Shown one piece after another: positions 7,992-21,726 of a stretch of 64,000 nt of DNA. The DNA is taken from contig JAFYDQ010000117.1 of assembly GCA_017544705.1 (NCBI GenBank), forward strand, positions 14,006-78,005, given 5' to 3'. The notes under the pieces are model-generated. The model searched no databases and was not told the origin of the DNA. It saw only the letters and a program-made list of their open reading frames with translations. This DNA is from Lachnospiraceae bacterium. Its GTDB lineage: Bacteria; Bacillota; Clostridia; Lachnospirales; Lachnospiraceae. The position numbers and the translations under genes are program-made. Every line of letters starts with the position of its first letter. The stretch's first letter is position 1.

Positions 7992-9746
7992 TTAATCAAC
8001 CTTGAAGAATGCGACATTCTCTTTCAGCTGTGCAGAAATGTTGGTCAGTTCGTCCGCGTCTCTTACAACATCGCTCATGTTGGCAGTCAGCTGTGTGATC
8101 GAAGCACTGGTCTCCTGTGTGGAAGCGGCGTACTCTTCAGAAATGCTGGAGAGCGATTCGACGGAAGCCATGATCTTTTCTTTCCCTTCCGTCATCGATT
8201 CCACGAGCGATGCAATTTCTTTATTGCCGCTTTCCGTTTCGTTCAGTACCTGAAGCATCTTGTCGAAGGAAACACTCATGTTTTCGAGGGCTTCTGCTTC
8301 GCTTGTTGTTGCATCCTTGATACTTCCGGTCAGAGTACGGTTTTCATTCGAATACTGGGTGATGGTGCTGAGCATCTGCGTGATCTCTCCGGCCATCTGA
8401 TTTGATTCTTCAGCAAGTCCTTTAATGTTGTCCGCAACAACCGCAAATCCCTTTCCGGCTTCTCCGGCTCTTGCCGCTTCGATGGAAGCGTTGAGGGCAA
8501 GCAGGTTGGTCTGGCTCGCGATGGAGATGATGCCTTCCGCGGCTTTACTGATCTCTTCAACAACTTCTGCGGTCTTGCTGACGGAATCAGCGACCTGACC
8601 TGCCTTGGCATTGGTCTCCTCATCCGCTTTGCGGATTTCGCCAAGCTGTTTCTGCAGTGCGAGAGAATCCTCATACAGAGCATTGACTTTTTCCAGATTG
8701 CTTTCCGCAACGGAATGTACTTTATCGATACTGTCGCCGATCTCCTGCGTAATGCCGGCCGTAACCTGTACGTCTTCGGCCATGGACATTGCGCCTTGTG
8801 CCAGTTCGCCGACTGCAACGGAAATGTTGCTGGTGTTTTCTTCGGAGTTAGCAATGCTGTCTTTGGCGTTTCCGGCTTTGCTGTTTACGGAGTCGGCACA
8901 GGAAACCACATCAAGCAGGGATCCCTGCAGGTGTTCGCGCATGCTTTCCATGGAGTCTTCCACGTTATGGAATTCCGTAAACATGCTCTCTGTCTCAACA
9001 GCCGTAACAAAATCACCGGTTGCCATGTTGTTAACGGCGCCAACCATATAATTGATGCTAAGGCGCATCTTATGGAGAACAATGACTGCAACAACAAGGA
9101 TCAGGATCGTGATGATCGCAAAGATCACAATGCTGGTGAGGACGCTCTTTTGAATCTGTGCCTGACGGATCGCCTTTTCGTTGACCGCCCACTGCTCTGT
9201 GATATCGGTCATTTCCGAAATGGAATCTCTGGTGGATTCAAAGTTCTGGATAAAGATGGTATAGTCACCGGTACCGTTTTTGACATCATAACAACTTTCC
9301 CACTCATTATAGCCGTTCATAAAGGCGTTATATAACTGATCATAGTTGTCCGTATCGATAACCGTTCCGGTGTAGAGCCCCGGTTCTTTGCTGGCAATAT
9401 CATGCGCTTCGTTGACACGGTCGAGAATCTGCTGCTTGTTGGATTCATAATCATCCAGATACTGGGCAGTCAGCTCGGCCATCATCTCGGGGGGAATATC
9501 ATCCGGAGCGGCCGTTACATCATGATACTGCATTGCGCCGAGCATGGACTGGTAAAAGTCTCTGTCGGCATTGATCAGGTCAGCGCTGATCGTGTAGAGA
9601 TGGTCAAAATAGAGTTCTTCGTCTTCTTTTGTAACCTTCTGCAACTGCATGCCGAAGAAACCGATGCTGATGGCCACCATGGCAACCAGAACGATTCCGG
9701 CACATAACAGAGCGAGTACGATACTGATCTGTGATTTTTTCTTCAT
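7992..9746 (-). CDS. Methyl-accepting chemotaxis protein with an extracytoplasmic sensor domain
   Basis: Two TM helices flank a sensor domain of about 200 aa. The C-terminal MCP signalling domain carries the conserved tip [30 protein letters not shown]. The start is at ATG 9746 (MKKKSQ), because the candidate promoter lies downstream of the ORF-opening ATG at 9827. Confidence 0.85.
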
Positions 9747-9798
9747 AGGCCAAATGTCATCCTTTCGTTGTTGTGACATAGTGAAGGTAAGTGTTTGA

Positions 9799-9827
9799 AT
9801 TATACCATTGAATACGCGGTTTTGCAA
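9799..9827 (-). promoter_or_regulatory. Candidate sigma-A promoter for the MCP gene
   Basis: On the minus strand: TTGCAA (9827-9822), 17-nt spacer, TG-extended TATAAT (9804-9799). Confidence 0.5.
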
Positions 9828-10650: not shown

Positions 10651-11181
10651 ATGAGTGGATCAAAAGGGGAAAACATGACGGAATACGAACGGATCAAAGA
10701 TATCGTCAGGGCACTGCGTGCAGAAAACGGATGCCCCTGGGACAGAGAACAGACGCACATGAGCCTGAAACCGGCCTGTATCGAGGAGGCGGCGGAGGTG
10801 ATCTGCGGGATCAATATTCTGGATGAAACAGGCAATCCGGATAACCTGAAAGAAGAACTGGGAGATCTGCTCCTGCAGGTGCTGATGCATGCACAGATCG
10901 CGGAAGAAGAAGGCCTGTTTACGATGGAAGATGTCTGCAAATGCATCGCGGATAAGATGATCCGCAGACATCCGCATGTATTCGGTGACACACAGGTGGA
11001 CGGATCGGCGGAAGTTTTAAAAAACTGGGATAAGATCAAAGAACAGGAGAAGCAGGGAAAAGAATGGATGGACGAGCGGCTGCCCGCCGCGTTTGCGGAG
11101 TCGAAGGAACTGGTTGACCGGGCGGAAGAGAGAAAACGCAAAAAGATGTTGGAAAAGGCAGCACAAAAAGACAGAAAATAA
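10651..11181 (+). CDS. mazG: MazG-family nucleoside triphosphate pyrophosphohydrolase
   Basis: The motifs GCPWDREQTHMSLKPACIEEAAEV and EELGDLLLQV are typical of the MazG domain, followed by a Lys/Glu-rich tail. An alternative start at ATG 10675 (MTEYER) is preceded by AAGGGG. Confidence 0.8.
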   Translation: MSGSKGENMTEYERIKDIVRALRAENGCPWDREQTHMSLKPACIEEAAEVICGINILDETGNPDNLKEELGDLLLQVLMHAQIAEEEGLFTMEDVCKCIADKMIRRHPHVFGDTQVDGSAEVLKNWDKIKEQEKQGKEWMDERLPAAFAESKELVDRAEERKRKKMLEKAAQKDRK

Positions 11182-11258: not shown

Positions 11259-12740
11259 ATGAATCAGGAAAAATCCAATGCAGCATATGTGAATAAGACA
11301 GCCATGACTTTATTCACGGCGCTAACAGCCATTATCAGTATCGCCTATATCATCCAATTGGTAAAAGGCGAAGCGGATATGACCAAATTTCTGTCGGTTG
11401 AGATTTTTGACTTAGGACCGATGATCCTTGGCTGGATCCTTTATAAAACAGATCCGGAGACGAAGCTGATCAAGCATGTGATCGGGATCGGATACGGGAT
11501 CTTCTACGCGATCGTATGTTTCGTGACAACGAACACGATCCTGGTTTTCGTTTACGCGATACCGGTATTGCTGCTGACGGCGCTGTTTGACGATATGCGC
11601 CTGTCCCTGATCTCAAGTATCGGCGTTTCCCTGATCGCCGCGATCCATGCGGTCAGGTTTGCATCCCTGCAGAACTGGGAGGGCGGCGCTGTAGCGGATC
11701 TTGAAATCGAAGTGCTGATCATGATCATGGTATCCATCTTCTCCATCGTGGTCAACAGAGTCATCAACAAGATCAATGAAGCCAGAATGAAGGTGATCAA
11801 CGAGACCGGAGAGAAAAATGCGAAAATGCTGGATTCGATCGTCACCGTTTCCGGAAATCTTGTGGAAGATGTCGCGAAGGTTTCCGATCTGATGACAACG
11901 CTTTCCGAGTCGAGCGCAGAAACCCTTTCCGCCATGCAGGAGGTACAGTCCGGCACGACCGATTCCGCGGAATCCGTTCAGAACCAGTTGATCAAGACGG
12001 AAGAGATTCAGGTACAGATCGAAAACGTTACCAGAACATCCGAAGATATCAGCAACAATACGAATGATGCCGTAGAAGCGATCCGTGAGGGCAGAAACAA
12101 CATCGCAACGCTGATCGAGCAATCCAAGATTTCTGAAGAGGCCGGTAATGGTGTCATTCAGGAAGTGGAAGGACTGAAATCTTCGACGGAGCAGATGGAG
12201 ACGATCGTTTCACTGATCCAGAGCGTTGCATCCCAGACCAGCCTGCTTGCATTAAATGCAAGTATTGAAGCTGCAAGAGCCGGAGAAGCGGGACGCGGAT
12301 TTGCGGTTGTTGCAACGGAGATTTCCAATCTGGCCGGGCAGACACAGAATGCGACCGGCAATATCAACGAACTGATCGCCGGTATTTCCAAAGAGATCGG
12401 TGAAGTGGTCAGCGCGATCAATTCCCTTGTGGAGAGCAACAGGATCCAGAACGAATCGGCGCAGGTTACTTCCGAAAGCTTTGATAAGATCGTTGAAAAC
12501 GCAAGCAGGATCAGTGAAAACTCCGGTGAGCTGTCCGGTATTGTCGCCAAACTGGCAAGCGCCAACAATGAGATCGTAGAAAGCATTCAGACGATCTCGG
12601 CGATCACGGAAGAGGTTTCCGCACATTCCACGACCACCTGTTCCACGACGGAAGCAAACCAGCGTACCGTGGAAGAGGTACAGGATATCGTACAGGATAT
12701 GATCAAGGCCGCAGATCAGTTAAAGTCTTTGGAACAGTAA
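11259..12740 (+). CDS. Methyl-accepting chemotaxis protein with a polytopic membrane N-terminus
   Basis: The first 170 aa contain about 5-6 TM helices and no large periplasmic domain. The MCP signalling tip is [37 protein letters not shown] lies upstream of the ATG. Confidence 0.85.
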
Positions 12741-12743
12741 GCC

Positions 12744-13466
12744 TTAAGGCCTTAAGATGACGGACTTGGGACTGAAGAAATACATGGCGCTTTGCAGGGC
12801 ACCAAGCGTGTGCCAGGATTTAACCAGATCATCATAATCGATCGTGGCGATCCTGCCCCAGGTCGAGATTAAGAGACGTACTTTTCCATCGCGTTCATCG
12901 ATGCCGGTAATGGTCACGAAATGGTTTTTCATTTCTTTGCCGGCCGGCTGCGGCGTGGAAGATACGGATGTGAAATCAGAATATAATGTAAGAGGATGAT
13001 GATTACGGGCTGTCAGAAGTGTGACAGCCCCGTTTTCTTTTAAGCCTCTTTTGATAAAACGGAGTCCGCTTTTGTAGGAGCATAAAAAAGTCAGCCGGAA
13101 ACGGGATTTTAATGACAGTCCGCGCTTTTTCGCAAAGCGCAGCATACCGAGGATGAAGCCGATGGAGCTTTGCCCGAAGCTTGGCGGGATGAGTTTACAG
13201 AGCGGAAAATCCTTATTCATATCATAGATCCGCCGAAGGATCGGTGTTTCAAGCGCCTTCATGCTGTGATACATTTCGTTCATGTATTTCATGTAAGTTG
13301 CTTTATCGATCGGAAAGCGATGGGTAAGCATCAGAAAGGAATTCAGCGCGGCAACATGCCCGCAACCGCTGTGCGCCTGCGTGTTCCTGGCAAACCAGGC
13401 CTGGTTGCCGCCATAGTATTCCTTGTGGTTGTCCGGATCTTCGATCAAAAAATCATTCTTGTTCAT
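12744..13466 (-). CDS. Hypothetical protein with a papain/C39-like cysteine-peptidase signature; last gene of the sensor-hydrogenase operon
   Basis: 240 aa. The pattern Q-x4-C-G (NTQAHSGCGHVAALN) plus a downstream His (KNHFVTITGID) resembles the Gln/Cys...His arrangement of papain-fold or C39-like peptidases. The start overlaps the PHP gene by 14 nt. The family assignment is tentative. Confidence 0.6.
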   Translation of the reverse strand: MNKNDFLIEDPDNHKEYYGGNQAWFARNTQAHSGCGHVAALNSFLMLTHRFPIDKATYMKYMNEMYHSMKALETPILRRIYDMNKDFPLCKLIPPSFGQSSIGFILGMLRFAKKRGLSLKSRFRLTFLCSYKSGLRFIKRGLKENGAVTLLTARNHHPLTLYSDFTSVSSTPQPAGKEMKNHFVTITGIDERDGKVRLLISTWGRIATIDYDDLVKSWHTLGALQSAMYFFSPKSVILRP

Positions 13467-14178
13467 ATTTCAGTAATGCATCAAACAGCCCCTTGGCTGA
13501 TCTTTCTTCCACATGGATATAATTTGCAGGTTCATTAAGGGCATCCAGCCGGTGCGCATCGCTGCTTGAGAGGATGTGACAGCGCTTCAGGTACGGATGC
13601 ATCTGTGATAGCTCAGAAAGCTTTTCCGGATGGCGGAGCTCCGCGATCTTAAACTTTGCGTTATCCGGGATCATACCGAGATTGGATAAAAGGCTTGTGG
13701 AACTTTTGTCCAAATGAGCCGGAACCATGATCCCGTGGTATTCTTTTACAAGATCATAAACCTGATCAAAGGAGATCGAGGTCGCGGATATCAGCAATGT
13801 ATCAAAACTGCCGCAAGGACTGTCTTCTTCATCGATCAGGATCTGGTTGCCGAAAAATTGCGGATTGTTTGGAATGGGAAGGATCTTGTCTTCCACGTAA
13901 GCGTCAAATGCAAGCGCGTCCTTAAGCGTGGAAAAATAGCAGAGCACGTGCACTTCTTCAGCCGTTGTGAGTTCCATGCCCGGGATCGCGATCAGAGAAA
14001 ACTGCTCCGCCATTTTCAGAAAAGCAGGGCAGTTCTTTGATGTGTTATGGTCTGTCAGTGCGATCGCATCAAGTCCCAAAAGGGACGCCATTCCCACGAT
14101 GTTACCCGGAGTCATGTCATCGTCACCGCAGGGAGACAGACAGGAATGTATATGCATGTCATAAGAAATCGGGATCAT
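13453..14178 (-). CDS. PHP-domain (polymerase/histidinol-phosphatase-like) metal-dependent phosphoesterase
   Basis: PHP motifs: YDMHIHSCLSPCGDD, ALTDHNT, EVHVLCYF, VPAHLD and SSSDAH. Confidence 0.8.
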   Translation of the reverse strand: MIPISYDMHIHSCLSPCGDDDMTPGNIVGMASLLGLDAIALTDHNTSKNCPAFLKMAEQFSLIAIPGMELTTAEEVHVLCYFSTLKDALAFDAYVEDKILPIPNNPQFFGNQILIDEEDSPCGSFDTLLISATSISFDQVYDLVKEYHGIMVPAHLDKSSTSLLSNLGMIPDNAKFKIAELRHPEKLSELSQMHPYLKRCHILSSSDAHRLDALNEPANYIHVEERSAKGLFDALLKYEQE

Positions 14179-14504
14179 AAGTACGCGTGTGCTTTCAGTG
14201 CCGCATCAAATACGGGAAGGTCGGTTTTGAAAACAGTAATGTTCTGTTCCTTTGCTTTGGACAGGAATGCGTCATCCGCTACAACACCACAGGCAAGCAC
14301 GACACAACCGCATTCTGCCAGGGACGCAACAGCGAGCGTGTTCACATTGTTCATAACGGTCACCCATACGCAACCCTCCGGCGCATGGCCCATTGCGATG
14401 CTAAGCAGATCACAGCAGTAGCAGCCGGTAAGAACGGTATCATGATTGTTGCCATCGTTGAGAAGCGTAAAAATATCCGCATCCATCAATTCTTTGATCG
14501 TCAT
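14175..14504 (-). CDS. DRTGG-domain-like small protein
   Basis: 109 aa. The pattern VWVTVMNNVNTLAVASLAECGCVVLACGVVADDAFLSKAKEQNITVF matches the DRTGG-type fold as I recall it. ATGA-type 4-nt overlaps occur at both ends. Confidence 0.6.
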   Translation of the reverse strand: MTIKELMDADIFTLLNDGNNHDTVLTGCYCCDLLSIAMGHAPEGCVWVTVMNNVNTLAVASLAECGCVVLACGVVADDAFLSKAKEQNITVFKTDLPVFDAALKAHAYL

Positions 14505-15805
14505 AGGCTGTTTTCCTCCTCCAGTTCTTCAAACGCGTCTTCTCCATACAGATAATAGCGTCTCAGTAACTCCGTGCAGCTGTGCACATCGCCCTTTCCC
14601 CGGATATGGTCTTCCGCGAGGGCTTTGCAGGTGGGGGCACCACAGCCGCCGCAATCAAGACCCGGAAGCACGCGCATGATCTTCTCCAGGCGTACCATGT
14701 TATTGATGCTTTCCAGCATACTCGTTCCGAGCATGTAAACCGGCTCATAGGTGATCTCATCCGTCAGTGCAATGTCTGTCTTCTGCGGGAAATCTTCCGG
14801 ATGCGAGAGTGCAACGGGCAGATATTTCTTCAGGTGTTTGAGCTTGGAACTTGCGGCAAACGGATTCTCCACATTCAGCACGCCGCCCACACAACCGCCC
14901 GGACAGGCGTTCAGCTCAACAAAACGGATATCCATCTGGAACTTTTCATCTTCCAGATCTTCCAGTACCCGGACTACATTTTCAATCCCGTCCGCGGCAA
15001 TATAATTATCCAAAAGGATCCCGGCTGCTTCTCCGCCGGTCAGTCCCCAGCCGACGCCGATCTTGCCGGACAGGCAATATTCCATCGGATTGTTTTTTGC
15101 TTCTTTCATGGCAGAAAGCATCAGCGGATAGATCTCCTTGGTGGCAAGGACCACGTCGATGCTGCTGTTTGTAATGCCCAGGGGATCCCTGACGGCCGTG
15201 ACCTTGGAAGGGCACGGCGAAATAAAAGCGATCCCGATCTCTTCCGGTTTCAGGCCGGTTTTTTCCACTGCACGCTGTCTTGCCAGTTCCGCAGCAACTT
15301 CCACCGGCGGTTTGAGCGGCAGGAGATTATCAAGGAGTTCCGGAAAGCGGATCCGGATCAGTCTTGTGACCGTGGGACATGCCGTACTGATCAGGATGCG
15401 GGGTTCTTCATGTTCGGCGATATATTTCCGCGTCTCGGCAGAAACAAGCTCTGCCGCTGCGCCGACTTCGAATACATCATCAAATCCGATCATGGTCAGG
15501 GCGGTCAGGATGATGTTGATGTCATCGAGATGATTGAACTGGCCATAAAGGGAAGGGGGCGGAAGCGCCACTTTATACTTATAGTTTTCAAGCGCATCCA
15601 TATGGTCAAACCGGGCCTGCTTTGCATAGTGCGGACAATGACGGATGCATTCGCCGCAGTCAATGCAGAACTCTTTGATGATGTGCGCTTTTCCGTTCCG
15701 GACACGGATCGCCTGTGTGGGACAGGTTTTGATACAGGTGATGCATCCGCAGCACTTGTCGGTGTCCAGATAAACGGAATGGAAAAACTTTTGATTATCG
15801 GGCAT
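14501..15805 (-). CDS. Sensor-class [FeFe]-hydrogenase homologue (HydS-like, no PAS domain)
   Basis: The N-terminus has two [4Fe-4S] ferredoxin motifs (CCGCITCIKTCP, CIDCGECIRHCP). The H-cluster domain has L1 ISTACPTV, L2 ISPCPSK and L3 ELNACPGGCVGG. An extra C-terminal Cys motif reads CGGCGAPTC-x16-C. Confidence 0.85.
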   Translation of the reverse strand: MPDNQKFFHSVYLDTDKCCGCITCIKTCPTQAIRVRNGKAHIIKEFCIDCGECIRHCPHYAKQARFDHMDALENYKYKVALPPPSLYGQFNHLDDINIILTALTMIGFDDVFEVGAAAELVSAETRKYIAEHEEPRILISTACPTVTRLIRIRFPELLDNLLPLKPPVEVAAELARQRAVEKTGLKPEEIGIAFISPCPSKVTAVRDPLGITNSSIDVVLATKEIYPLMLSAMKEAKNNPMEYCLSGKIGVGWGLTGGEAAGILLDNYIAADGIENVVRVLEDLEDEKFQMDIRFVELNACPGGCVGGVLNVENPFAASSKLKHLKKYLPVALSHPEDFPQKTDIALTDEITYEPVYMLGTSMLESINNMVRLEKIMRVLPGLDCGGCGAPTCKALAEDHIRGKGDVHSCTELLRRYYLYGEDAFEELEEENSL

Positions 15806-15815
15806 AAGCAGTTAC

Positions 15816-16250
15816 CTATGATGAAAAATAAACGGTCATGGTTACGGTGGTTCCGACGCCGACTTCGGATTCGATGTTGAATTCATCGGAGTTGTTGCGC
15901 ATATTCGGCAGTCCCATGCCGGCACCGAATCCTAAGTTGATCACATCGGCCGGTGCCGTGGAGAAACCTTCCTGCATGGCTTCTTCGATGTTCGCGATAC
16001 CGGGGCCTGTATCTTTTAAGCACATGACGATCCGGTCTTCATAGATATCCACGTCGATGGTCCCGCCGTATGCATGGATGATCATGTTGATCTCGCCTTC
16101 ATACATCGCGATCGAAACCTTACGGACGGCCGCCGCATCGACGTTCATCATTTTCAGCTTGTTCTTCACGTCCGAACTGGCTGAACCGGCATGTGTGAAA
16201 TCGTCTTTGGAAACGACATATTGAAAATGGAGACTATCGTTGGAGTTCAC
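15816..16250 (-). CDS. RsbW/SpoIIAB-like anti-sigma-type Ser/Thr protein kinase (stand-alone GHKL ATPase)
   Basis: About 144 aa. Bergerat-fold motifs are the N-box EINMIIHAYGG, G1 DTGPGI and G2 GFGAGMGLP. The ORF opens at GTG 16259, but GTG 16250 sits 8 nt downstream of GGAGG. The start is uncertain by 9 nt. Confidence 0.75.
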   Translation of the reverse strand: MNSNDSLHFQYVVSKDDFTHAGSASSDVKNKLKMMNVDAAAVRKVSIAMYEGEINMIIHAYGGTIDVDIYEDRIVMCLKDTGPGIANIEEAMQEGFSTAPADVINLGFGAGMGLPNMRNNSDEFNIESEVGVGTTVTMTVYFSS

Positions 16251-16596
16251 TTGGCACACCTCCGTTCAGACCGTTATAGAAAAGCAGACCGCAGGTGGTG
16301 AACATGGAGGAGCGGGTCAGTAAAACGCAGATCTCCAGTTCGTTCGCCAGTTCAATGATCTCGGGATCGGGATCTCTTCGCCCGATGAAAACGACACAGG
16401 CCATGCCCATCATATCGGCGGTCCGCAGAACCTGTGCGTTGTAAAGACCGGTGATCAGAATAGACTTGTCATTGGCATAAGCCAGAACATTGCTCATGAT
16501 GTCAGAGCAGAATGCGGAATCGACATCCGTATCAAGGTCAAAATTCTCCGTCAATACGGATGCGTGGAGTAAATCCTTGATTTCCCCCAATTTCAT
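16234..16596 (-). CDS. DRTGG-domain-like small protein; first gene of the sensor operon
   Basis: 120 aa from ATG 16596 (MKLGEIKD), with GGGAGG 7 nt upstream. The sequence ILITGLYNAQVLRTADMMGMACVVFIGRRDPDPEIIELANELEICVLLT fits the DRTGG pattern. Confidence 0.6.
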   Translation of the reverse strand: MKLGEIKDLLHASVLTENFDLDTDVDSAFCSDIMSNVLAYANDKSILITGLYNAQVLRTADMMGMACVVFIGRRDPDPEIIELANELEICVLLTRSSMFTTCGLLFYNGLNGGVPSELQR

Positions 16597-16630
16597 TGTG
16601 ATACCTCCCGAAAAAATCAAATAAATGAAA

Positions 16631-16659
16631 GAAATAAAACCTTGTTAAAAAAGTGTCAA
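16631..16659 (-). promoter_or_regulatory. Weak candidate promoter for the sensor operon
   Basis: On the minus strand: perfect TTGACA (16659-16654), 17-nt spacer, poor -10 TATTTC (16636-16631). Confidence 0.3.
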
Positions 16660-16697
16660 CATGATAAAATCAATACACTACGACCATTATAACATAT

Positions 16698-16706
16698 TGA
16701 TATGAT
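16698..16706 (+). promoter_or_regulatory. Candidate extended -10 promoter for the hydC operon
   Basis: TG-a-TATGAT (16698-16706) lies about 38 nt upstream of GTG 16744. There is no convincing -35. Confidence 0.35.
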
Positions 16707-16743
16707 GATTGTTAGTATTTTAGAAATGCGTTGGAGGTAAAGC

Positions 16744-17235
16744 GTGAAAAACAGTGGAGGCATTCCCTTCAAGGGAACAGAAGAACAAAAACAGCAGCTT
16801 CTCAAGGTGATCAACGATCTGCGTGATACGTCCGGATGTCTGATGCCGATCATGCAGGCGGCGCAGGATATTTACGGATATCTGCCTTATGAAGTGCAAA
16901 AAATCATTTCTGACGAACTGGGCATCCCCGTAGAAAAAGTTTACGGCGTTGCAACATTCTATGCACAGTTCAATTTGAATCCGAAGGGTGAGAACACCGT
17001 TTCGGTATGTCTCGGAACAGCCTGCTATGTTAAGGGCTCCGGTCTTGTATTCGAAGAGATCGAAAAGCAGCTTGGCATCAGCGACGGAGAGTGCACATCC
17101 GACGGTAAGTTTTCGCTGGATACCTGCAGATGCGTCGGTGCCTGCGGTCTTGCTCCGGTCATGCTCGTTAACGAGGATGTTTACGGCAAGGTCACACCCG
17201 ATCAGGTCAAAGGCATTTTGGATAAGTACAAATAA
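16744..17235 (+). CDS. hydC: NuoE-like [2Fe-2S] subunit of a bifurcating-type [FeFe]-hydrogenase (HydC/HndA)
   Basis: GTG start with GGAGG 7 nt upstream. NuoE-type cluster motifs are present: SVCLGTACYVKGSG and CRCVGACGLAPV. Confidence 0.85.
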   Translation: MKNSGGIPFKGTEEQKQQLLKVINDLRDTSGCLMPIMQAAQDIYGYLPYEVQKIISDELGIPVEKVYGVATFYAQFNLNPKGENTVSVCLGTACYVKGSGLVFEEIEKQLGISDGECTSDGKFSLDTCRCVGACGLAPVMLVNEDVYGKVTPDQVKGILDKYK

Positions 17236-17783
17236 TGTTACCTGAAATTTCTCTGAATGTTTTGGATATTGCGCAGAATTCCATCAAGGCCGGTGCGTCG
17301 CTTGTGGAGATCAAAGTGAGTATCATGAGAGAAGAACATCTCCTGACACTTTCAATCGAAGATGATGGGTGCGGCATGGATGCGGAACAGCTGGAACGGG
17401 TGATCGATCCGTTCTTCACATCAAGATCAACAAGAAAGATCGGTTTGGGCGTTCCGTTCTTAAAACAGGCCGCGGAAGCAAGCGGAGGGAACTTCCGGAT
17501 ATCGTCTGAGGTCAACGTGGGGACCTGTGTGTCGGCTACGTTCCATACGGACAACATTGACTGTATGCCACTCGGAGATATCAACAGCACGATTTTTTCT
17601 CTGGTGACGACCAATGAAGAGTTGAATTTCGTGTATACCTACCGGGTTAATGAGAAAGAATTCACGCTGGACACAAGAGAGATCAGAGAAATTCTTGGAG
17701 ATGTTTCTTTTCAGAACGGCGAAGTGTCTTCGTTCCTGAGAGAGTATTTATCAGAGAATCAATTGGAGGTTGAACAACAATGA
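17235..17783 (+). CDS. Stand-alone histidine-kinase-like (GHKL) ATPase embedded in the hydrogenase operon
   Basis: 182 aa. Motifs are the N-box LDIAQNSIKAGA, G1 EDDGCGM and G2 KIGLGVPF. There is no HisKA/DHp domain and no TM helix. TAATG overlaps hydC and ATGA overlaps the next gene. Confidence 0.8.
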   Translation: MLPEISLNVLDIAQNSIKAGASLVEIKVSIMREEHLLTLSIEDDGCGMDAEQLERVIDPFFTSRSTRKIGLGVPFLKQAAEASGGNFRISSEVNVGTCVSATFHTDNIDCMPLGDINSTIFSLVTTNEELNFVYTYRVNEKEFTLDTREIREILGDVSFQNGEVSSFLREYLSENQLEVEQQ

Positions 17784-18151
17784 AATCACTGGAAGAATTA
17801 AAAGCAATCCGCGAGAAGATGCAGGGTCAGGTCGGATTCCGTTCTGAAAACGAAGACGGAACACGTATCGTTGTCGGCATGGCTACCTGTGGGATCGCCA
17901 GCGGCGCAAGACCGGTTTTAAATGAACTGGTAAAGCAGGTAAATGACCGCAAGTTGAGCGATGTGTCTGTTACACAGACCGGATGCATCGGCCTGTGCCA
18001 GTATGAGCCGATCGTTGAGGTGTTTAAGCCCGGCGAAGAGAAAGTCACATATGTCAAGATGACCGCAGACAAGGCAGTTGAGGTTTTGGAAAAACATGTA
18101 CTTGGCGGAACCGTTGTTGAAGATTACACATTGAACAAAATCAAATTATAA
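17780..18151 (+). CDS. Thioredoxin-like [2Fe-2S] ferredoxin subunit (HydD/HndB-like)
   Basis: 123 aa. Cys motifs are GMATCGIASGA and TGCIGLCQYEP. Confidence 0.8.
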   Translation: MKSLEELKAIREKMQGQVGFRSENEDGTRIVVGMATCGIASGARPVLNELVKQVNDRKLSDVSVTQTGCIGLCQYEPIVEVFKPGEEKVTYVKMTADKAVEVLEKHVLGGTVVEDYTLNKIKL

Positions 18152-18168
18152 TTGGAGGTTTGGCTATT

Positions 18169-19959
18169 ATGTATCGTTCTCACGTATTGGTGTGCGGAGG
18201 AACAGGCTGTACTTCATCCGGAAGTCAGGCGATCCTTCAGAACCTTGAGGAAGAATTAAAGAAAAATGGCTTGGAAGACGAAGTGGCCATCGTTAAAACC
18301 GGCTGCCACGGCCTTTGCGCAAAAGGTCCCATCATGGTTGTATACCCTGATGCCGTATTCTATTCGGAGGTAAAACCGGAAGACGTTGCAGAGATCGTTT
18401 CCGAGCATCTGTTAAAAGGTCGTCCGGTAGAACGTCTCATTTATGATGAGAATGCACCGGAAGAAAACAGGGTATCCTTAAATGATACGAATTTCTACAA
18501 GAAACAGACACGTATCGCGCTGCGGAACTGCGGTGTGATCAATCCTGAAAATATCGACGAGTACATCACAACGCGCGGTTATGAAGCGCTCGGCAAAGTG
18601 CTCACGGAAATGACACCGGATGAAGTCATCCAACTGATCTTAGACTCCGGTTTAAGAGGCCGCGGCGGTGCAGGCTTCCCGACCGGATTAAAGTGGAGAT
18701 TTGCTTCAGGCAACCGCGGCAACGTACAGAAGTATGTATGCTGTAACGCCGACGAAGGTGACCCGGGTGCATTCATGGACAGATCCGTCCTGGAAGGTGA
18801 TCCGCATGTGGTACTGGAAGCTATGGCGATCGCCGGCTATGCGATCGGTTCCAACCAGGGTTATATCTATGTTCGCGCCGAGTACCCGATCGCGATCGAG
18901 AGACTGCGCATTGCCATCGGACAGGCAAGAGAATACGGATTACTCGGAAAAGACATTTTCGGTACCGGATTTGATTTTGACATCGATTTAAGACTTGGTG
19001 CAGGTGCTTTCGTATGTGGTGAAGAGACCGCTCTGATGACCTCCATCGAAGGTAACCGCGGTGAGCCGAGACCCCGTCCGCCTTTCCCGGCAGTTAAGGG
19101 CTTATTCGGCAAACCGACCATTCTGAATAACGTTGAGACTTGGGCAAATATCCCGCAGATCATCTTGAACGGTCCCGAATGGTTCTCCGCAGTAGGTACG
19201 GAGAAATCCAAAGGAACAAAAGTATTCGCTCTGGGCGGCAAGATCAACAACACCGGTCTTGTTGAGATCCCGATGGGAACAACCCTTCGCACGGTCATCG
19301 AAGACATCGGCGGCGGCATCCCGGGCGGTAAGAAGTTCAAGGCTGCACAGACGGGCGGACCTTCCGGCGGATGTATTCCTGCGGAACATTTTGACATTGA
19401 GATCGACTACGACAACCTGTTAAGCATCGGTTCCATGATGGGTTCCGGCGGACTGATCGTTATGGATGAAGACAACTGTATGGTAGATATCGCGAAGTTC
19501 TTCCTGCAGTTCACGGTCGATGAATCCTGCGGTAAATGTACGCCTTGCCGTGTCGGCACAAAGAGAATGTTAGAGATCCTTGATAAGATCACGGTAGGAA
19601 AAGGCACAATGGAAGATCTGACAACGCTGGAAGATCTTGCTTACTACATTAAGGAAAGCGCATTGTGCGGACTTGGCCAGACGGCTCCCAACCCGGTTCT
19701 TTCAACGCTCAGATATTTCCGCGATGAATATGAAGCGCACATCAAAGAGAAGAAGTGTCCTGCAGGCGTATGTAAGTCCCTGATCAACTTCTACATTGAT
19801 CCTGACAAGTGTAAGGGATGTACGCTGTGCGCAAGAAACTGCCCTGCGAATGCGATCAAGGGTGAGGTTCGCAATCCTCATGTCATCGACATCGAGAAGT
19901 GCGTGAAGTGCGGAACATGTATGGACAACTGTAAGTTTGGTGCAATTATTAAGAAATAA
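18169..19959 (+). CDS. hydB: NuoF-like NAD(P)H/FMN subunit of a bifurcating-type [FeFe]-hydrogenase (HydB/HndC)
   Basis: N-terminal thioredoxin-like 2Fe-2S domain (VLVCGGTGC...GCHGLC), FMN/NADH site (GLRGRGGAGFPTGLKW), 4Fe-4S motif (ESCGKCTPCR) and two C-terminal ferredoxin motifs. I prefer ATG 18169, 10 nt after GGAGG, over TTG 18160. Confidence 0.9.
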   Translation: MYRSHVLVCGGTGCTSSGSQAILQNLEEELKKNGLEDEVAIVKTGCHGLCAKGPIMVVYPDAVFYSEVKPEDVAEIVSEHLLKGRPVERLIYDENAPEENRVSLNDTNFYKKQTRIALRNCGVINPENIDEYITTRGYEALGKVLTEMTPDEVIQLILDSGLRGRGGAGFPTGLKWRFASGNRGNVQKYVCCNADEGDPGAFMDRSVLEGDPHVVLEAMAIAGYAIGSNQGYIYVRAEYPIAIERLRIAIGQAREYGLLGKDIFGTGFDFDIDLRLGAGAFVCGEETALMTSIEGNRGEPRPRPPFPAVKGLFGKPTILNNVETWANIPQIILNGPEWFSAVGTEKSKGTKVFALGGKINNTGLVEIPMGTTLRTVIEDIGGGIPGGKKFKAAQTGGPSGGCIPAEHFDIEIDYDNLLSIGSMMGSGGLIVMDEDNCMVDIAKFFLQFTVDESCGKCTPCRVGTKRMLEILDKITVGKGTMEDLTTLEDLAYYIKESALCGLGQTAPNPVLSTLRYFRDEYEAHIKEKKCPAGVCKSLINFYIDPDKCKGCTLCARNCPANAIKGEVRNPHVIDIEKCVKCGTCMDNCKFGAIIKK

Positions 19960-19974
19960 CGGGAGGAGACCAAA

Positions 19975-21726
19975 ATGGGAGATATTACTTTAAAAATCAA
20001 TAATGTAGAAGTGTCTGCCCCGGAAGGCTCTACGATCTTGGAAGCGGCCAGACTGGCGCAGATTGAAATCCCTACATTATGTTTTCTGAAAGAGATCAAT
20101 GAAATTGGCGCATGCAGAATGTGCGTTGTGGAAGTGAAGGGTGCAAGATCACTGGTTACGGCCTGTGTATACCCGATCACGGAAGGCATGGAAGTATTTA
20201 CCAACACACCGAAGGTTGTGGCTTCCAGAAAGAAGACGTTAGAGCTGCTTCTGTCCAATCACGAAAAGAAATGCTTATCCTGTGTCCGCAGTGAGAGCTG
20301 CGAACTGCAGAAACTCTGCAAGGACTACGGGATCGAGGATGAGAACAAGTATGACGGCGAAAGACCGCAGTACGAACTCGATACCTCTGCTGCACATATG
20401 GTCAGGGATAACAACAAATGTATCCTTTGCCGCCGCTGTGTGGCTGCCTGTGAAAAGACACAGGGCATCGGCGTGATCGGTGCGAACGAGCGTGGTTTCA
20501 AGACCTACATTGGCTCTGTCTTTGATTTTGACTTAGCAGATACCAGCTGCGTAAGCTGCGGACAGTGTATCGCAGCCTGCCCGACCGGTGCGCTGTATGA
20601 GAAAGACGATACGGATAAAGTATTTGCAGCGATCGCAGATCCCGATAAGTATGTCGTTGTACAGACCGCTCCGGCTGTCAGAGCAGCGATCGCCGAAGAG
20701 TTCGGCAATCCGATCGGAACGAACGGAGAAGGCCAGATGATCGCAGCGCTGCGCCGTCTTGGCTTTGACAAGGTATTTGATACCAACTTCTCTGCCGACT
20801 TAACGATCATGGAAGAAGCAAACGAGCTGATCGAACGTGTACAGAACGGCGGCGTTCTGCCGATGATCACTTCCTGCTCACCCGGCTGGGTTAAATACTG
20901 TGAGCATTACTATCCGGATCTGCTGGATCATCTTTCATCCTGCAAATCCCCGCAGCAGATGTTTGGTGCGATCACCAAGTCTTACTTTGCGGAGAAGGTG
21001 GGCGTTGACAAAGAGAAGATCGTGATGGTTTCCATCATGCCTTGTACGGCGAAGAAGTTTGAGATCGGCCGTGACGACCAGGATGCAAACGGCCTGCCGG
21101 ATGTAGACATCGCACTGACCACCAGAGAACTGGCAAGAATGATCAAGAAGGCGGGCATCCGCTTCAACGATCTTCCGGCGGAAGATTATGATCATCCGCT
21201 CGGCGACCACAGTGGTGCCGGCGTCATCTTCGGTGCGACCGGTGGTGTTATGGAGGCTGCGCTTCGTACAGCTGTTGAGACACTGACAGGGGAAGAACTG
21301 AAGGCTCTGGATTTCCAGGAAGTACGTGGTACCGCAGGTATCAAGGAAGCAACCTATCCGGTAGCAGGCATGGAAGTAAAGGTAGCCGTCGCAAGCGGCC
21401 TGTCCAATGCGAAGGTGCTGCTCGACAAGATCAGAAAGGGCGAAGCGGATTATCAGTTCATCGAGATCATGTGCTGCCCCGGCGGTTGTGTCAACGGTGG
21501 CGGACAGCCTCAGGTTCCGGGTTATGTGCGTAACACGGTTGATGTTCGCGCAAAGAGAGCATCCGTACTGTATGACCTTGATAAGAACGCACCGGTGCGG
21601 AAATCCCATGAGGTTCCCGAGATCAAGAAACTGTATGATGAGTATCTTGGCAAACCGGGCAGTGAAAAGGCACATCACCTCTTACATACAACCTATGTAA
21701 AGAGAGTTGTGAACCGTCTGGATTAA
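19975..21726 (+). CDS. hydA: [FeFe]-hydrogenase catalytic subunit (HydA/HndD, M3-type with a C-terminal small-subunit-like tail)
   Basis: N-terminal 2Fe-2S domain (CRMC), a His-ligated cluster (HEKKCLSCVRSESC) and two 4Fe-4S motifs. H-cluster motifs: L1 TSCSPGW, L2 MPCTAKKFE, L3 EIMCCPGGCVNGGGQP. GGGAGGAG lies upstream of the ATG. Confidence 0.9.
   Translation: MGDITLKINNVEVSAPEGSTILEAARLAQIEIPTLCFLKEINEIGACRMCVVEVKGARSLVTACVYPITEGMEVFTNTPKVVASRKKTLELLLSNHEKKCLSCVRSESCELQKLCKDYGIEDENKYDGERPQYELDTSAAHMVRDNNKCILCRRCVAACEKTQGIGVIGANERGFKTYIGSVFDFDLADTSCVSCGQCIAACPTGALYEKDDTDKVFAAIADPDKYVVVQTAPAVRAAIAEEFGNPIGTNGEGQMIAALRRLGFDKVFDTNFSADLTIMEEANELIERVQNGGVLPMITSCSPGWVKYCEHYYPDLLDHLSSCKSPQQMFGAITKSYFAEKVGVDKEKIVMVSIMPCTAKKFEIGRDDQDANGLPDVDIALTTRELARMIKKAGIRFNDLPAEDYDHPLGDHSGAGVIFGATGGVMEAALRTAVETLTGEELKALDFQEVRGTAGIKEATYPVAGMEVKVAVASGLSNAKVLLDKIRKGEADYQFIEIMCCPGGCVNGGGQPQVPGYVRNTVDVRAKRASVLYDLDKNAPVRKSHEVPEIKKLYDEYLGKPGSEKAHHLLHTTYVKRVVNRLD

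Follow-up and report, generated by a model that had tools for sequence, protein, structure and literature searches.

Sensor cassette and divergent hydrogenase operon

A 64-kb stretch of contig JAFYDQ010000117.1 from a Lachnospiraceae bacterium (the whole stretch is called the window below) carries at 12744-16596 six open reading frames (ORFs) on the minus strand, g1 to g6, grouped around a gene for a putative sensory [FeFe]-hydrogenase (HydS). They stand divergent from hydC-GHKL2-fdx-hydB-hydA, the operon of a bifurcating [FeFe]-hydrogenase. As a copy of a system already known and widespread the locus is ordinary, and the window itself holds nothing unusual. That M2e hydrogenases occur beside kinases and bifurcating hydrogenases, as an earlier reading of this sequence (the original prediction) stated, has been in published work since 2010-2012. 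New are the natural fusions between the cassette proteins, the swap of the sensor for a CBS pair, the co-travel of the GHKL protein encoded within the hyd operon, the invariant Asp32 and Ser35 of the DRTGG proteins and the Rex-like boxes between the two operons.

The first gene, g1 (16234-16596), encodes the 120 amino acid (aa) protein DRTGG-A and lies directly upstream of g2 (15816-16250, 144 aa from GTG 16250), a GHKL ATPase or serine kinase of the SpoIIAB/RsbW class. Then follow g3 (14501-15805, 434 aa), the putative HydS of group D (M2e); g4 (14175-14504, 109 aa), encoding DRTGG-B; g5 (13453-14178, 241 aa), encoding a metal-dependent phosphoesterase of the PHP family; and g6 (12744-13466, 240 aa), a putative cysteine hydrolase of papain fold. 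The longest ORF for g2 begins at GTG 16259; GTG 16250 has GGAGG 9 nucleotides (nt) upstream and, provided that g2 starts there, its overlap with g1 is 17 nt. A 10-nt gap separates g2 from g3, g4 overlaps both g3 and g5 by 4 nt, and g5 and g6 share 14 nt. The spacer between g1 and hydC (16597-16743), a divergent AT-rich promoter region, measures 147 bp with a GC content of 28.6%, compared with about 49% for the window. Coordinates, overlaps, gap and spacer are all as first read, and family hidden Markov models (HMMs) verified the hydC-GHKL-fdx-hydB-hydA operon. Five of the six domain calls made originally (DRTGG, GHKL, HydS, DRTGG and PHP) also held up; g6 was left without a family match. No Rfam family or structured RNA was matched anywhere in the window.

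Conservation of a five-gene core

A HydS alignment scanned against a single genome from each species gave at least 580 confirmed loci among 600 matches listed. The best 80 of these, with HydS identities of 51-63% and from Lachnospiraceae, Oscillospiraceae, Ruminococcaceae, Acutalibacteraceae and other families, were surveyed by ORF prediction and BLASTP. The cassette is carried by at least several hundred species and is mostly divergent from hydC-GHKL2-fdx-hydB-hydA. Genes g1-g2-g3-g4 are collinear at all 80 loci and g5 is present at 77, and the 4-nt overlaps at g3/g4 and g4/g5 recur in many of them. The hyd operon lies within 10 kb at 67 loci: it is divergent at 60 (within 700 bp at 52, further off at 8), downstream on the same strand at 5 and otherwise arranged at 2.

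The original prediction had expected the set of six genes to be conserved beside hydABC. This holds for g1-g5, collinear in essentially all 80 loci, and fails for g6, which occurs at none of them; no other gene is conserved after the PHP gene there either. The conserved unit is therefore five genes.

Sensory hydrogenase

Pfam recognizes in g3 two Fer4 domains, Fe_hyd_lg_C (5.6e-31) and a C-terminal FeS domain (PF04060), and no PAS domain. Aligned with 12 homologues, g3 shows no variation at the H-cluster cysteines C143, C198, C301 and C305, at Ala142 (motif STACP), which stands in place of the proton-relay Cys, or at Ser196, which precedes P197-C198. Further motifs are ELNAC301xGGC305 and, at the C terminus, C385-x2-C388-x4-C393-x16-C410 (Cx2Cx4Cx16C). 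Group D (M2e), as described for TamHydS, is marked by absence of the proton-relay Cys (C299 of CpI) and by Ser or Thr in place of Met353 (PMC8163306). These sequence hallmarks of M2e/group D are present in g3, in agreement with the earlier call of a 434-aa hydrogenase homologue with sensor-type substitutions. Its architecture, active-site substitutions and neighbourhood identify g3 as a putative sensory-type [FeFe]-hydrogenase of group D (M2e).

Sensor-like biochemistry, that is high H2 affinity, low turnover and an H2-induced structural change, is known only for TamHydS. The enzyme is catalytically competent at a low rate, has a histidine-kinase-like ATPase as neighbour and is reported beside a gene annotated as an AraC-type regulator; the authors ask how its signal passes in a protein that lacks a PAS domain (PMC8163306). 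A 2026 study of TamHydS calls identification of the group D enzyme's interaction partners the critical next step. Other listed examples of M2e enzymes are Cthe_0335, Athe_1292, Csac_1857, TTE0887 and Teth39_1463 (PMC3561251). A literature search on locus tags of model organisms gave no functional data.

Some HydS homologues are longer. Six of them (P0041, P0042, P0047, P0052, P0057 and P0061; 514-577 aa) have a coiled-coil or low-complexity C-terminal extension that closes with the Cys motif CPxxGDCxHCxxICP(Y/F)Y, and were therefore ruled out as HydS-DRTGG fusions. Additional HydS-like paralogs of about 570-590 aa, with 25-31% identity to g3, flank hydA or the PHP gene at eight loci (L007, L008, L025, L032, L033, L038, L056 and L065); these could be sensors of group C or hydrogenases of another kind.

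Kinase and phosphoesterase

The original prediction of a GHKL kinase of RsbW/SpoIIAB size is supported. Pfam assigns g2 to HATPase_c_2 (E = 4e-11). Of the NCBIfam models SpoIIAB fits it best, with 61.5 bits where the equivalog cut-off is 135; the RsbW equivalog model scores 28 bits against a cut-off of 145. SpoIIAB is likewise the best match in the PDB (E = 1e-8), followed by RsbW, and the matches include solved SpoIIAB-SpoIIAA complexes. The N, G1 and G2 boxes of the GHKL fold are present (E54, N58, H62, D83-G-x-G87 and G110-L117), with E54/N58/H62 aligned to E46/N50/H54 of SpoIIAB. Across 161 homologues E54, E56, N58, D83, G85, G87, G110-G116 and N119 are essentially invariant. By these alignments g2 is a GHKL protein of the SpoIIAB/RsbW class with a predicted intact ATP site.

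The usual partners of such kinases were looked for. For no ORF did Pfam give a match to STAS, the domain to be expected of an antagonist beside g2. Neither a cognate sigma factor nor a PP2C phosphatase is encoded in the cassette or conserved nearby at the 80 loci, the phosphoesterase being of the PHP type.

The PHP call for g5 rests on a Pfam match above threshold (PF02811, E = 3e-8, 34.6 bits against a cut-off of 26.4). The metal ligands H9, H11, D43, H44, E69, H77, H155, D207 and H209 are at least 97% conserved among 115 sequences, and E74 is conserved as well. With every metal ligand invariant, g5 is a PHP enzyme with a predicted intact catalytic site. Its nearest solved relatives are the nucleotide-type PHP enzymes 3e0f and 7ug9, matched over the N-terminal 80 residues only. 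No similarity of g5 to CpsB-type models (CpsB/YwqE phosphoprotein phosphatases) was reported.

DRTGG proteins

Both DRTGG-like proteins of the original prediction were confirmed. DRTGG-A (g1) scores 39.6 bits against the Pfam DRTGG cut-off of 25.2 (E = 4.9e-10); DRTGG-B (g4) falls below it at 19.7 bits, but BLASTP clearly shows it to be paralogous to g1 (E = 1e-8, with 26% identity over 97 residues). Among 145 homologues of g1, Ser35 is found in all and Asp32 in 144, with Thr49 and Gln55 conserved to at least 95%. In g4 Asp32, Ser35 and Asn55 are each present in 135 of 135 sequences, and Thr49 is conserved too.

An AlphaFold2 model of g1 (predicted local distance difference test score, pLDDT, 88) matches the DRTGG structures 2ioj (template modelling (TM) score 0.77), 3l2b and 3l31 in Foldseek; behind these rank MurE-like ligases, LpxD and HPr kinase, each by its N-domain. 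Its top 50 structural matches include no STAS protein. In the model Ser35 begins a short helix after the strand 27-30, in the least confident internal segment.

A third DRTGG paralog was seen in an operon that does not encode a hydrogenase, between its NuoE-like gene and its NuoF-like gene (L165 8001-8354, L166 7019-7372 and L169 4518-4871). In this paralog, which stands outside the kinase/phosphatase cassette, Ser35 is replaced by Ala in seven of eight cluster representatives; the DRTGG fold therefore does not need the serine. The Ser35Ala clade was considered as a refutation of an acceptor role for Ser35 and dismissed, its proteins being the third paralog and not orthologues of those in the cassette. 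The Ser35 loop of one DRTGG protein is the best candidate phospho-acceptor that residue conservation suggests. No paper linking DRTGG or PHP proteins to hydrogenases was found in the literature.

Natural fusions and exchange of the sensor

With g2 as the query, an exhaustive HMMER search of representatives of clusters at 50% identity brought up 1712 relatives, and the best 150 were classified with custom HMMs, spot-checked with Pfam. In 64 the GHKL protein stands alone. It is fused to the N terminus of HydS in 46 and preceded by a CBS pair in 29; seven are fusions of a g1-type DRTGG with GHKL, one is DRTGG-CBS-GHKL and one GHKL-DRTGG, and the last two are short proteins (106-115 aa) with two GHKL matches. 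HATPase_c on sensory hydrogenases of Hydrogenedentota had been noticed in a 2024 paper. The remaining junction is bridged at L165/L166, where a 560-aa HydS homologue carries at its C terminus a g4-type DRTGG domain with 39% identity to g4 of the window (E = 3e-17), which in L165 passes the Pfam threshold at 26.6 bits. Since g1 is found fused to g2, g2 to g3 and g3 to g4, the products of g1-g4 are inferred to act as one complex. The fusions would place the kinase at the N-terminal side of HydS and DRTGG-B after its C-terminal [4Fe-4S] region. In group C sensors a PAS domain follows the C-terminal [4Fe-4S] region, the place taken here by DRTGG-B, which is a candidate for a C-terminal signalling domain split off from HydS.

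A metagenome scan with the CBS-GHKL proteins yielded 80 loci. Their usual order is g1 DRTGG, CBS-GHKL, g4 DRTGG and PHP, followed by GHKL2, hydC, fdx and hydB in varying order, and only L085 and L098 have HydS. The CBS pair was considered as a replacement for DRTGG-A, and this was rejected: these loci keep g1, have the CBS pair as an addition to the kinase, and lack HydS instead. The 'hydA-like' genes of these loci match only the N-terminal Fe-S part of HydA and have no H-domain. By Pfam their large subunits are either NuoG-like with a molybdopterin domain or Fer2_4 with Pyr_redox_2, and NuoF is often fused to a GltD-like module; the exception is L112, with a true HydA upstream. A reduced variant at L129 and L135 has no PHP gene: CBS-GHKL is accompanied by only one DRTGG, and directly after them come hydC-GHKL2-fdx-NuoF(GltD fusion)-formate-dehydrogenase-like genes.

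Comparative analysis thus reveals that HydS accompanies hydrogenases, and that a CBS pair takes its place beside NuoEF enzymes that are not hydrogenases. Such a distribution would be expected were HydS the H2-specific input of a general module. It suggests that the two DRTGG proteins, the kinase, the PHP enzyme and GHKL2 make up a general regulatory module for which HydS would be an exchangeable input.

Bifurcating hydrogenase and GHKL2

The plus-strand operon opens with hydC (16744-17235), which encodes a NuoE-like [2Fe-2S] subunit (2Fe-2S_thioredx, 2.4e-50). GHKL2 (17235-17783), an orphan ATP-binding domain of histidine-kinase type (HATPase_c, 2.2e-16), is followed by a small thioredoxin-like [2Fe-2S] ferredoxin resembling HydD (17780-18151; weak 2Fe-2S_thioredx, NCBIfam fdxn_Clost 3.8e-12). 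Next are hydB (18160-19959), encoding the NuoF-like flavin subunit (nuoF_fam, 1.9e-151), and hydA (19975-21726), for the catalytic [FeFe]-hydrogenase of the bifurcating complex (NCBIfam FeFe_hydrog_A6, 913.7 bits against a cut-off of 765). At about residues 299-305 HydA reads TSCSPGW and not the textbook TSCCPxW, and the same is seen in all 51 module-linked orthologues. The motif appears normal for this HydA clade because the closest solved chain, HydA1 of a HydABC complex (7q4v/8a5e), shares it.

GHKL2 accompanies hydC at each of the 67 genome loci that have the hyd operon. It also adjoins the PHP gene in many cassettes that lack HydS, and at L165 the PHP gene, GHKL2 and fdx come directly after the sensor genes. 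Second copies of HydABC in L022 and L056 are without GHKL2. The link to the GHKL protein inside hydABC, suggested in the original prediction, is strengthened by this co-travel, which persists even where both HydS and HydA are absent. The C-terminal region of GHKL2 (about 75 aa) is conserved and matches nothing in Pfam; D109, P112 and G114 are invariant. By gene order GHKL2 occupies the position of hydE in the hydC-hydE-hydD-hydB-hydA1 cluster of A. woodii.

Promoters and Rex-like boxes

The spacer contains a promoter-like site for each operon, both by consensus match only. For the sensor cassette, 16686-16715 on the minus strand reads CTAACA, an 18-nt spacer and TG-TATAAT (10 of 12 matches, extended -10); for hydC, 16642-16670 on the plus strand reads TTGTTA, a 17-nt spacer and TAAAAT (9 of 12 matches). 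Two Rex-like boxes were found with the clostridial Rex operator consensus TTGTTAANNNNTTAACAA. The first, TTGTTAAAAAAGTGTCAA (16642-16659, plus strand), has three mismatches to TTGTTAAN4TTAACAA, and the second, TTGTTAGTATTTTAGAAA (16709-16726, plus strand), is a weak match, also with three, and a putative operator.

The window has only five such three-mismatch matches, two of them in this spacer. The homologous box of a close relative (L001) to 16642-16659 has two mismatches. Across 55 divergent spacers the Rex motif is enriched, with a best match that averages 3.4 mismatches compared with 4.7 in shuffled sequences, and 18 of the 55, L001 included, have two or fewer. The orthologous hyd operon of C. 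thermocellum, with five genes, is bound upstream by Rex, and the operon also belongs to the Rex regulon of C. bescii (PMC8457756). There is no rex gene in the window, and both divergent operons are probably under the transcriptional control of Rex in trans. With Rex acting in trans there would be less need for a DNA-binding output inside the cassette, so that the Rex-like operators may partly explain why one is missing.

Tail gene and flanking genes

The family of g6 is tiny, with 23 homologue clusters from Lachnospiraceae assemblies, in which Q22, C35 and H182 are invariant. It has no match in Pfam, NCBIfam or, by sequence, the PDB; the PDB search returned chance-level matches to the CesT chaperone, which were discarded. 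An AlphaFold2 model (pLDDT 78, predicted TM score 0.81) matches phytochelatin-synthase-like Alr0975, AvrPphB, staphopain and cathepsins in Foldseek with a probability of about 1 and TM scores of only 0.45-0.54. Of the earlier label 'papain/C39-like', the papain-like half is reasonable at the level of predicted fold; the C39 half found no support, as no peptidase HMM matched. In the close relatives L167 and L168 (79% and 61% identity) g6 and the end of the PHP gene overlap, as in the window. At L001, whose g6 is 59% identical, 2.7 kb and three unrelated genes separate the gene from the cassette, and it is on the opposite strand; in 43% relatives (L003) it is unlinked to the cassette. By this distribution g6 is a clade-specific tail gene, a lineage-specific passenger and not a component of the system.

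Some flanking ORFs were labelled from their translations only. Two resemble methyl-accepting chemotaxis proteins and flank the cassette (7992-9827, minus strand, and 11259-12740, plus strand), and a MazG-like ORF lies nearby (10651-11181, plus strand). The chemotaxis-like gene at 11259-12740 is convergent with g6, and 3 nt separate their stop codons.

A model for signalling and its alternatives

We lean towards reading the locus as a group D (M2e) HydS cassette whose five proteins form a signalling complex that reports H2/redox state to the adjacent bifurcating HydABC. In this scheme H2 at the H-cluster would change the conformation of HydS, and the change would be relayed via the C-terminal [4Fe-4S] region to DRTGG-B and also to the kinase docked at the N terminus. 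The ATP-dependent kinase and the PHP enzyme would together set the phosphorylation state of a component of the module, for which the Ser35 loop of one DRTGG protein is the best candidate. That state would be read post-translationally on the NuoEF-type enzyme, probably through GHKL2. Rex, a sensor of NADH, would separately set transcription of both divergent operons in trans. The phosphorylation cycle of kinase and phosphoesterase put forward in the original prediction is a plausible hypothesis.

It is possible, if rather doubtful, that the module has a wider role. DRTGG-A, the kinase, DRTGG-B, PHP and GHKL2 could form an undescribed post-translational regulator of NuoEF-type (flavin-based electron-bifurcating) oxidoreductases with a swappable sensor. 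It would run on a phosphorylation cycle resembling a partner switch, in which DRTGG proteins with Ser35 stand in for STAS proteins and PHP for PP2C, with HydS as the H2 input and the CBS pair as a nucleotide input for formate-dehydrogenase-like or Nfn-like partners.

Several observations count against the signalling scheme. The C-terminal cluster of TamHydS keeps its redox state under H2, according to the 2026 study, and the weak sequence relatives of g5 act on nucleotides, not proteins. Each of the Rex-like boxes in the window departs from the consensus at three positions. A STAS-like fold for DRTGG was rejected on the Foldseek result, and this, with the fusion of DRTGG to kinase and to HydS elsewhere, weakens the original proposal of DRTGG as a stand-in for STAS. 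Ser35 could partly be a superfamily-wide feature, belonging to the general 'GAMS' region of DRTGG domains; the profile alignment of g1 with 2ioj is ambiguous around it. Elsewhere DRTGG is a dimerisation or regulatory module. The DRTGG proteins may be adaptors rather than substrates, a role which the fusions fit at least as well.

This last point leads to the strongest alternative, which we regard as tenable without favouring it. The DRTGG proteins would serve for docking, dimerisation or the binding of a ligand and would tie the kinase (by g1) and the phosphoesterase (by g4) to the sensor, and the target of phosphorylation would be GHKL2, a HydB, HydC or HydD subunit, or HydS itself. It agrees with the fusion of DRTGG to the N terminus of the kinase and to the C terminus of HydS or the kinase, with the DRTGG gene of its own that precedes each enzyme gene, with the co-travel of GHKL2, and with a fold that is not that of STAS. 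DRTGG is, moreover, regulatory or dimerising in CBS-pyrophosphatases and related to the N-domains of HPrK and PucR. Against a purely adaptor role, Ser35 and Asp32 are strictly kept in both cassette DRTGG proteins, yet the paralog that stands apart from the cassette has lost Ser35. The order g1-g2 also mirrors spoIIAA-spoIIAB and rsbV-rsbW.

The signalling scheme has its output on the enzyme. An output on transcription, in which g2 would sequester a sigma or transcription factor with an unlinked gene, as SpoIIAB and RsbW do, and the cassette would act on hyd transcription and not on enzyme activity, is unlikely. It would suit a kinase closest to those of anti-sigma factor type, the altered transcript levels after hfsB deletion in the group C system of Thermoanaerobacterium, and the AraC-type annotation beside TamHydS (PMC8163306). 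However, the cassette and its surroundings have no conserved gene for a sigma factor or DNA-binding protein at the 80 genome loci or the metagenome loci, as the original prediction had observed for the operon itself. The module always accompanies NuoEF-type operons together with GHKL2, and Rex-like operators already provide a transcriptional route.

Least probable is a role outside signalling, with the proteins serving assembly, repair or another accessory task for the NuoEF-type complex, or nucleotide-ligand handling; GHKL would be a chaperone-like ATP switch, PHP a nucleotide phosphoesterase and HydS a slow catalytic hydrogenase. The nearest relatives of g5 are indeed nucleotide phosphoesterases, CBS pairs bind adenine nucleotides, TamHydS turns over at a low rate (PMC8163306) and the module goes with the enzyme operon whatever the catalytic subunit. 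Nevertheless, the presence of HydS with hydrogenases and its absence with non-hydrogenase partners are those of an input sensor, not of a general assembly factor, and g2 resembles a kinase, not a chaperone. HydABC complexes have also been purified and solved, and the cassette proteins are not known to have been in the preparations.

The cassette bears on how [FeFe] sensory hydrogenases transmit the H2 signal. It occurs in hundreds of Clostridia from gut, rumen and sediment, beside the enzyme that sets fermentative H2 output. The comparative data name likely partners (the kinase on the N-terminal side of HydS, DRTGG-B on its C-terminal side, PHP and GHKL2) and supply Ser35 as a candidate phospho-site. 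They also lead to the prediction that the same module regulates non-hydrogenase bifurcating enzymes through a CBS input.

Comparison with known systems

The closest known loci are those of group D, TamHydS of Thermoanaerobacter mathranii, Cthe_0335, Athe_1292 and TTE0887. Like g3, their enzymes have two N-terminal [4Fe-4S] clusters, an H-domain, the Cx2Cx4Cx16C motif and no PAS domain, and like g3 the TamHydS-type enzymes have lost the proton-relay Cys and carry Ser in place of Met353. The window cassette differs in being divergent from hydABC, whereas the consecutive locus tags of the thermophile models suggest a single strand, and its clade has the papain-fold tail gene in addition.

Group C (M2f) systems, which include TmHydS, HydS of R. 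albus and HfsABCD of Thermoanaerobacterium, likewise have a sensory [FeFe]-hydrogenase that bears a [4Fe-4S] cluster at its C terminus, and its gene has as neighbours those for a kinase, a phosphatase and a bifurcating or fermentative hydrogenase. Genetic evidence speaks for their regulatory role. In contrast to the window cassette, they have a fused PAS domain, and the Ser/Thr kinase and phosphatase that go with them are of other types; in the cassette the C-terminal cluster is followed by a DRTGG protein that is separate or, in some cases, fused.

The resemblance to the partner-switching modules SpoIIAA-SpoIIAB-SpoIIE and RsbV-RsbW-RsbU/P lies in a small GHKL protein of serine-kinase type, closest to SpoIIAB, coupled to a preceding small alpha/beta protein and with a dedicated phosphoesterase nearby. 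However, the cassette has no STAS protein, its small proteins having the DRTGG fold, and it has PHP instead of PP2C and no sigma factor. Its kinase is elsewhere fused to sensor and DRTGG, and g2 reaches neither the SpoIIAB nor the RsbW equivalog cut-off.

Finally, the CBS-DRTGG regulatory inserts of family II pyrophosphatases share with g1 the DRTGG fold, its best structural match, and CBS pairs join the cassettes that lack HydS. In the pyrophosphatases the CBS-DRTGG unit is inserted in one enzyme and responds to adenine nucleotides, whereas the DRTGG proteins of the cassette stand alone, in the company of a kinase and a phosphoesterase.

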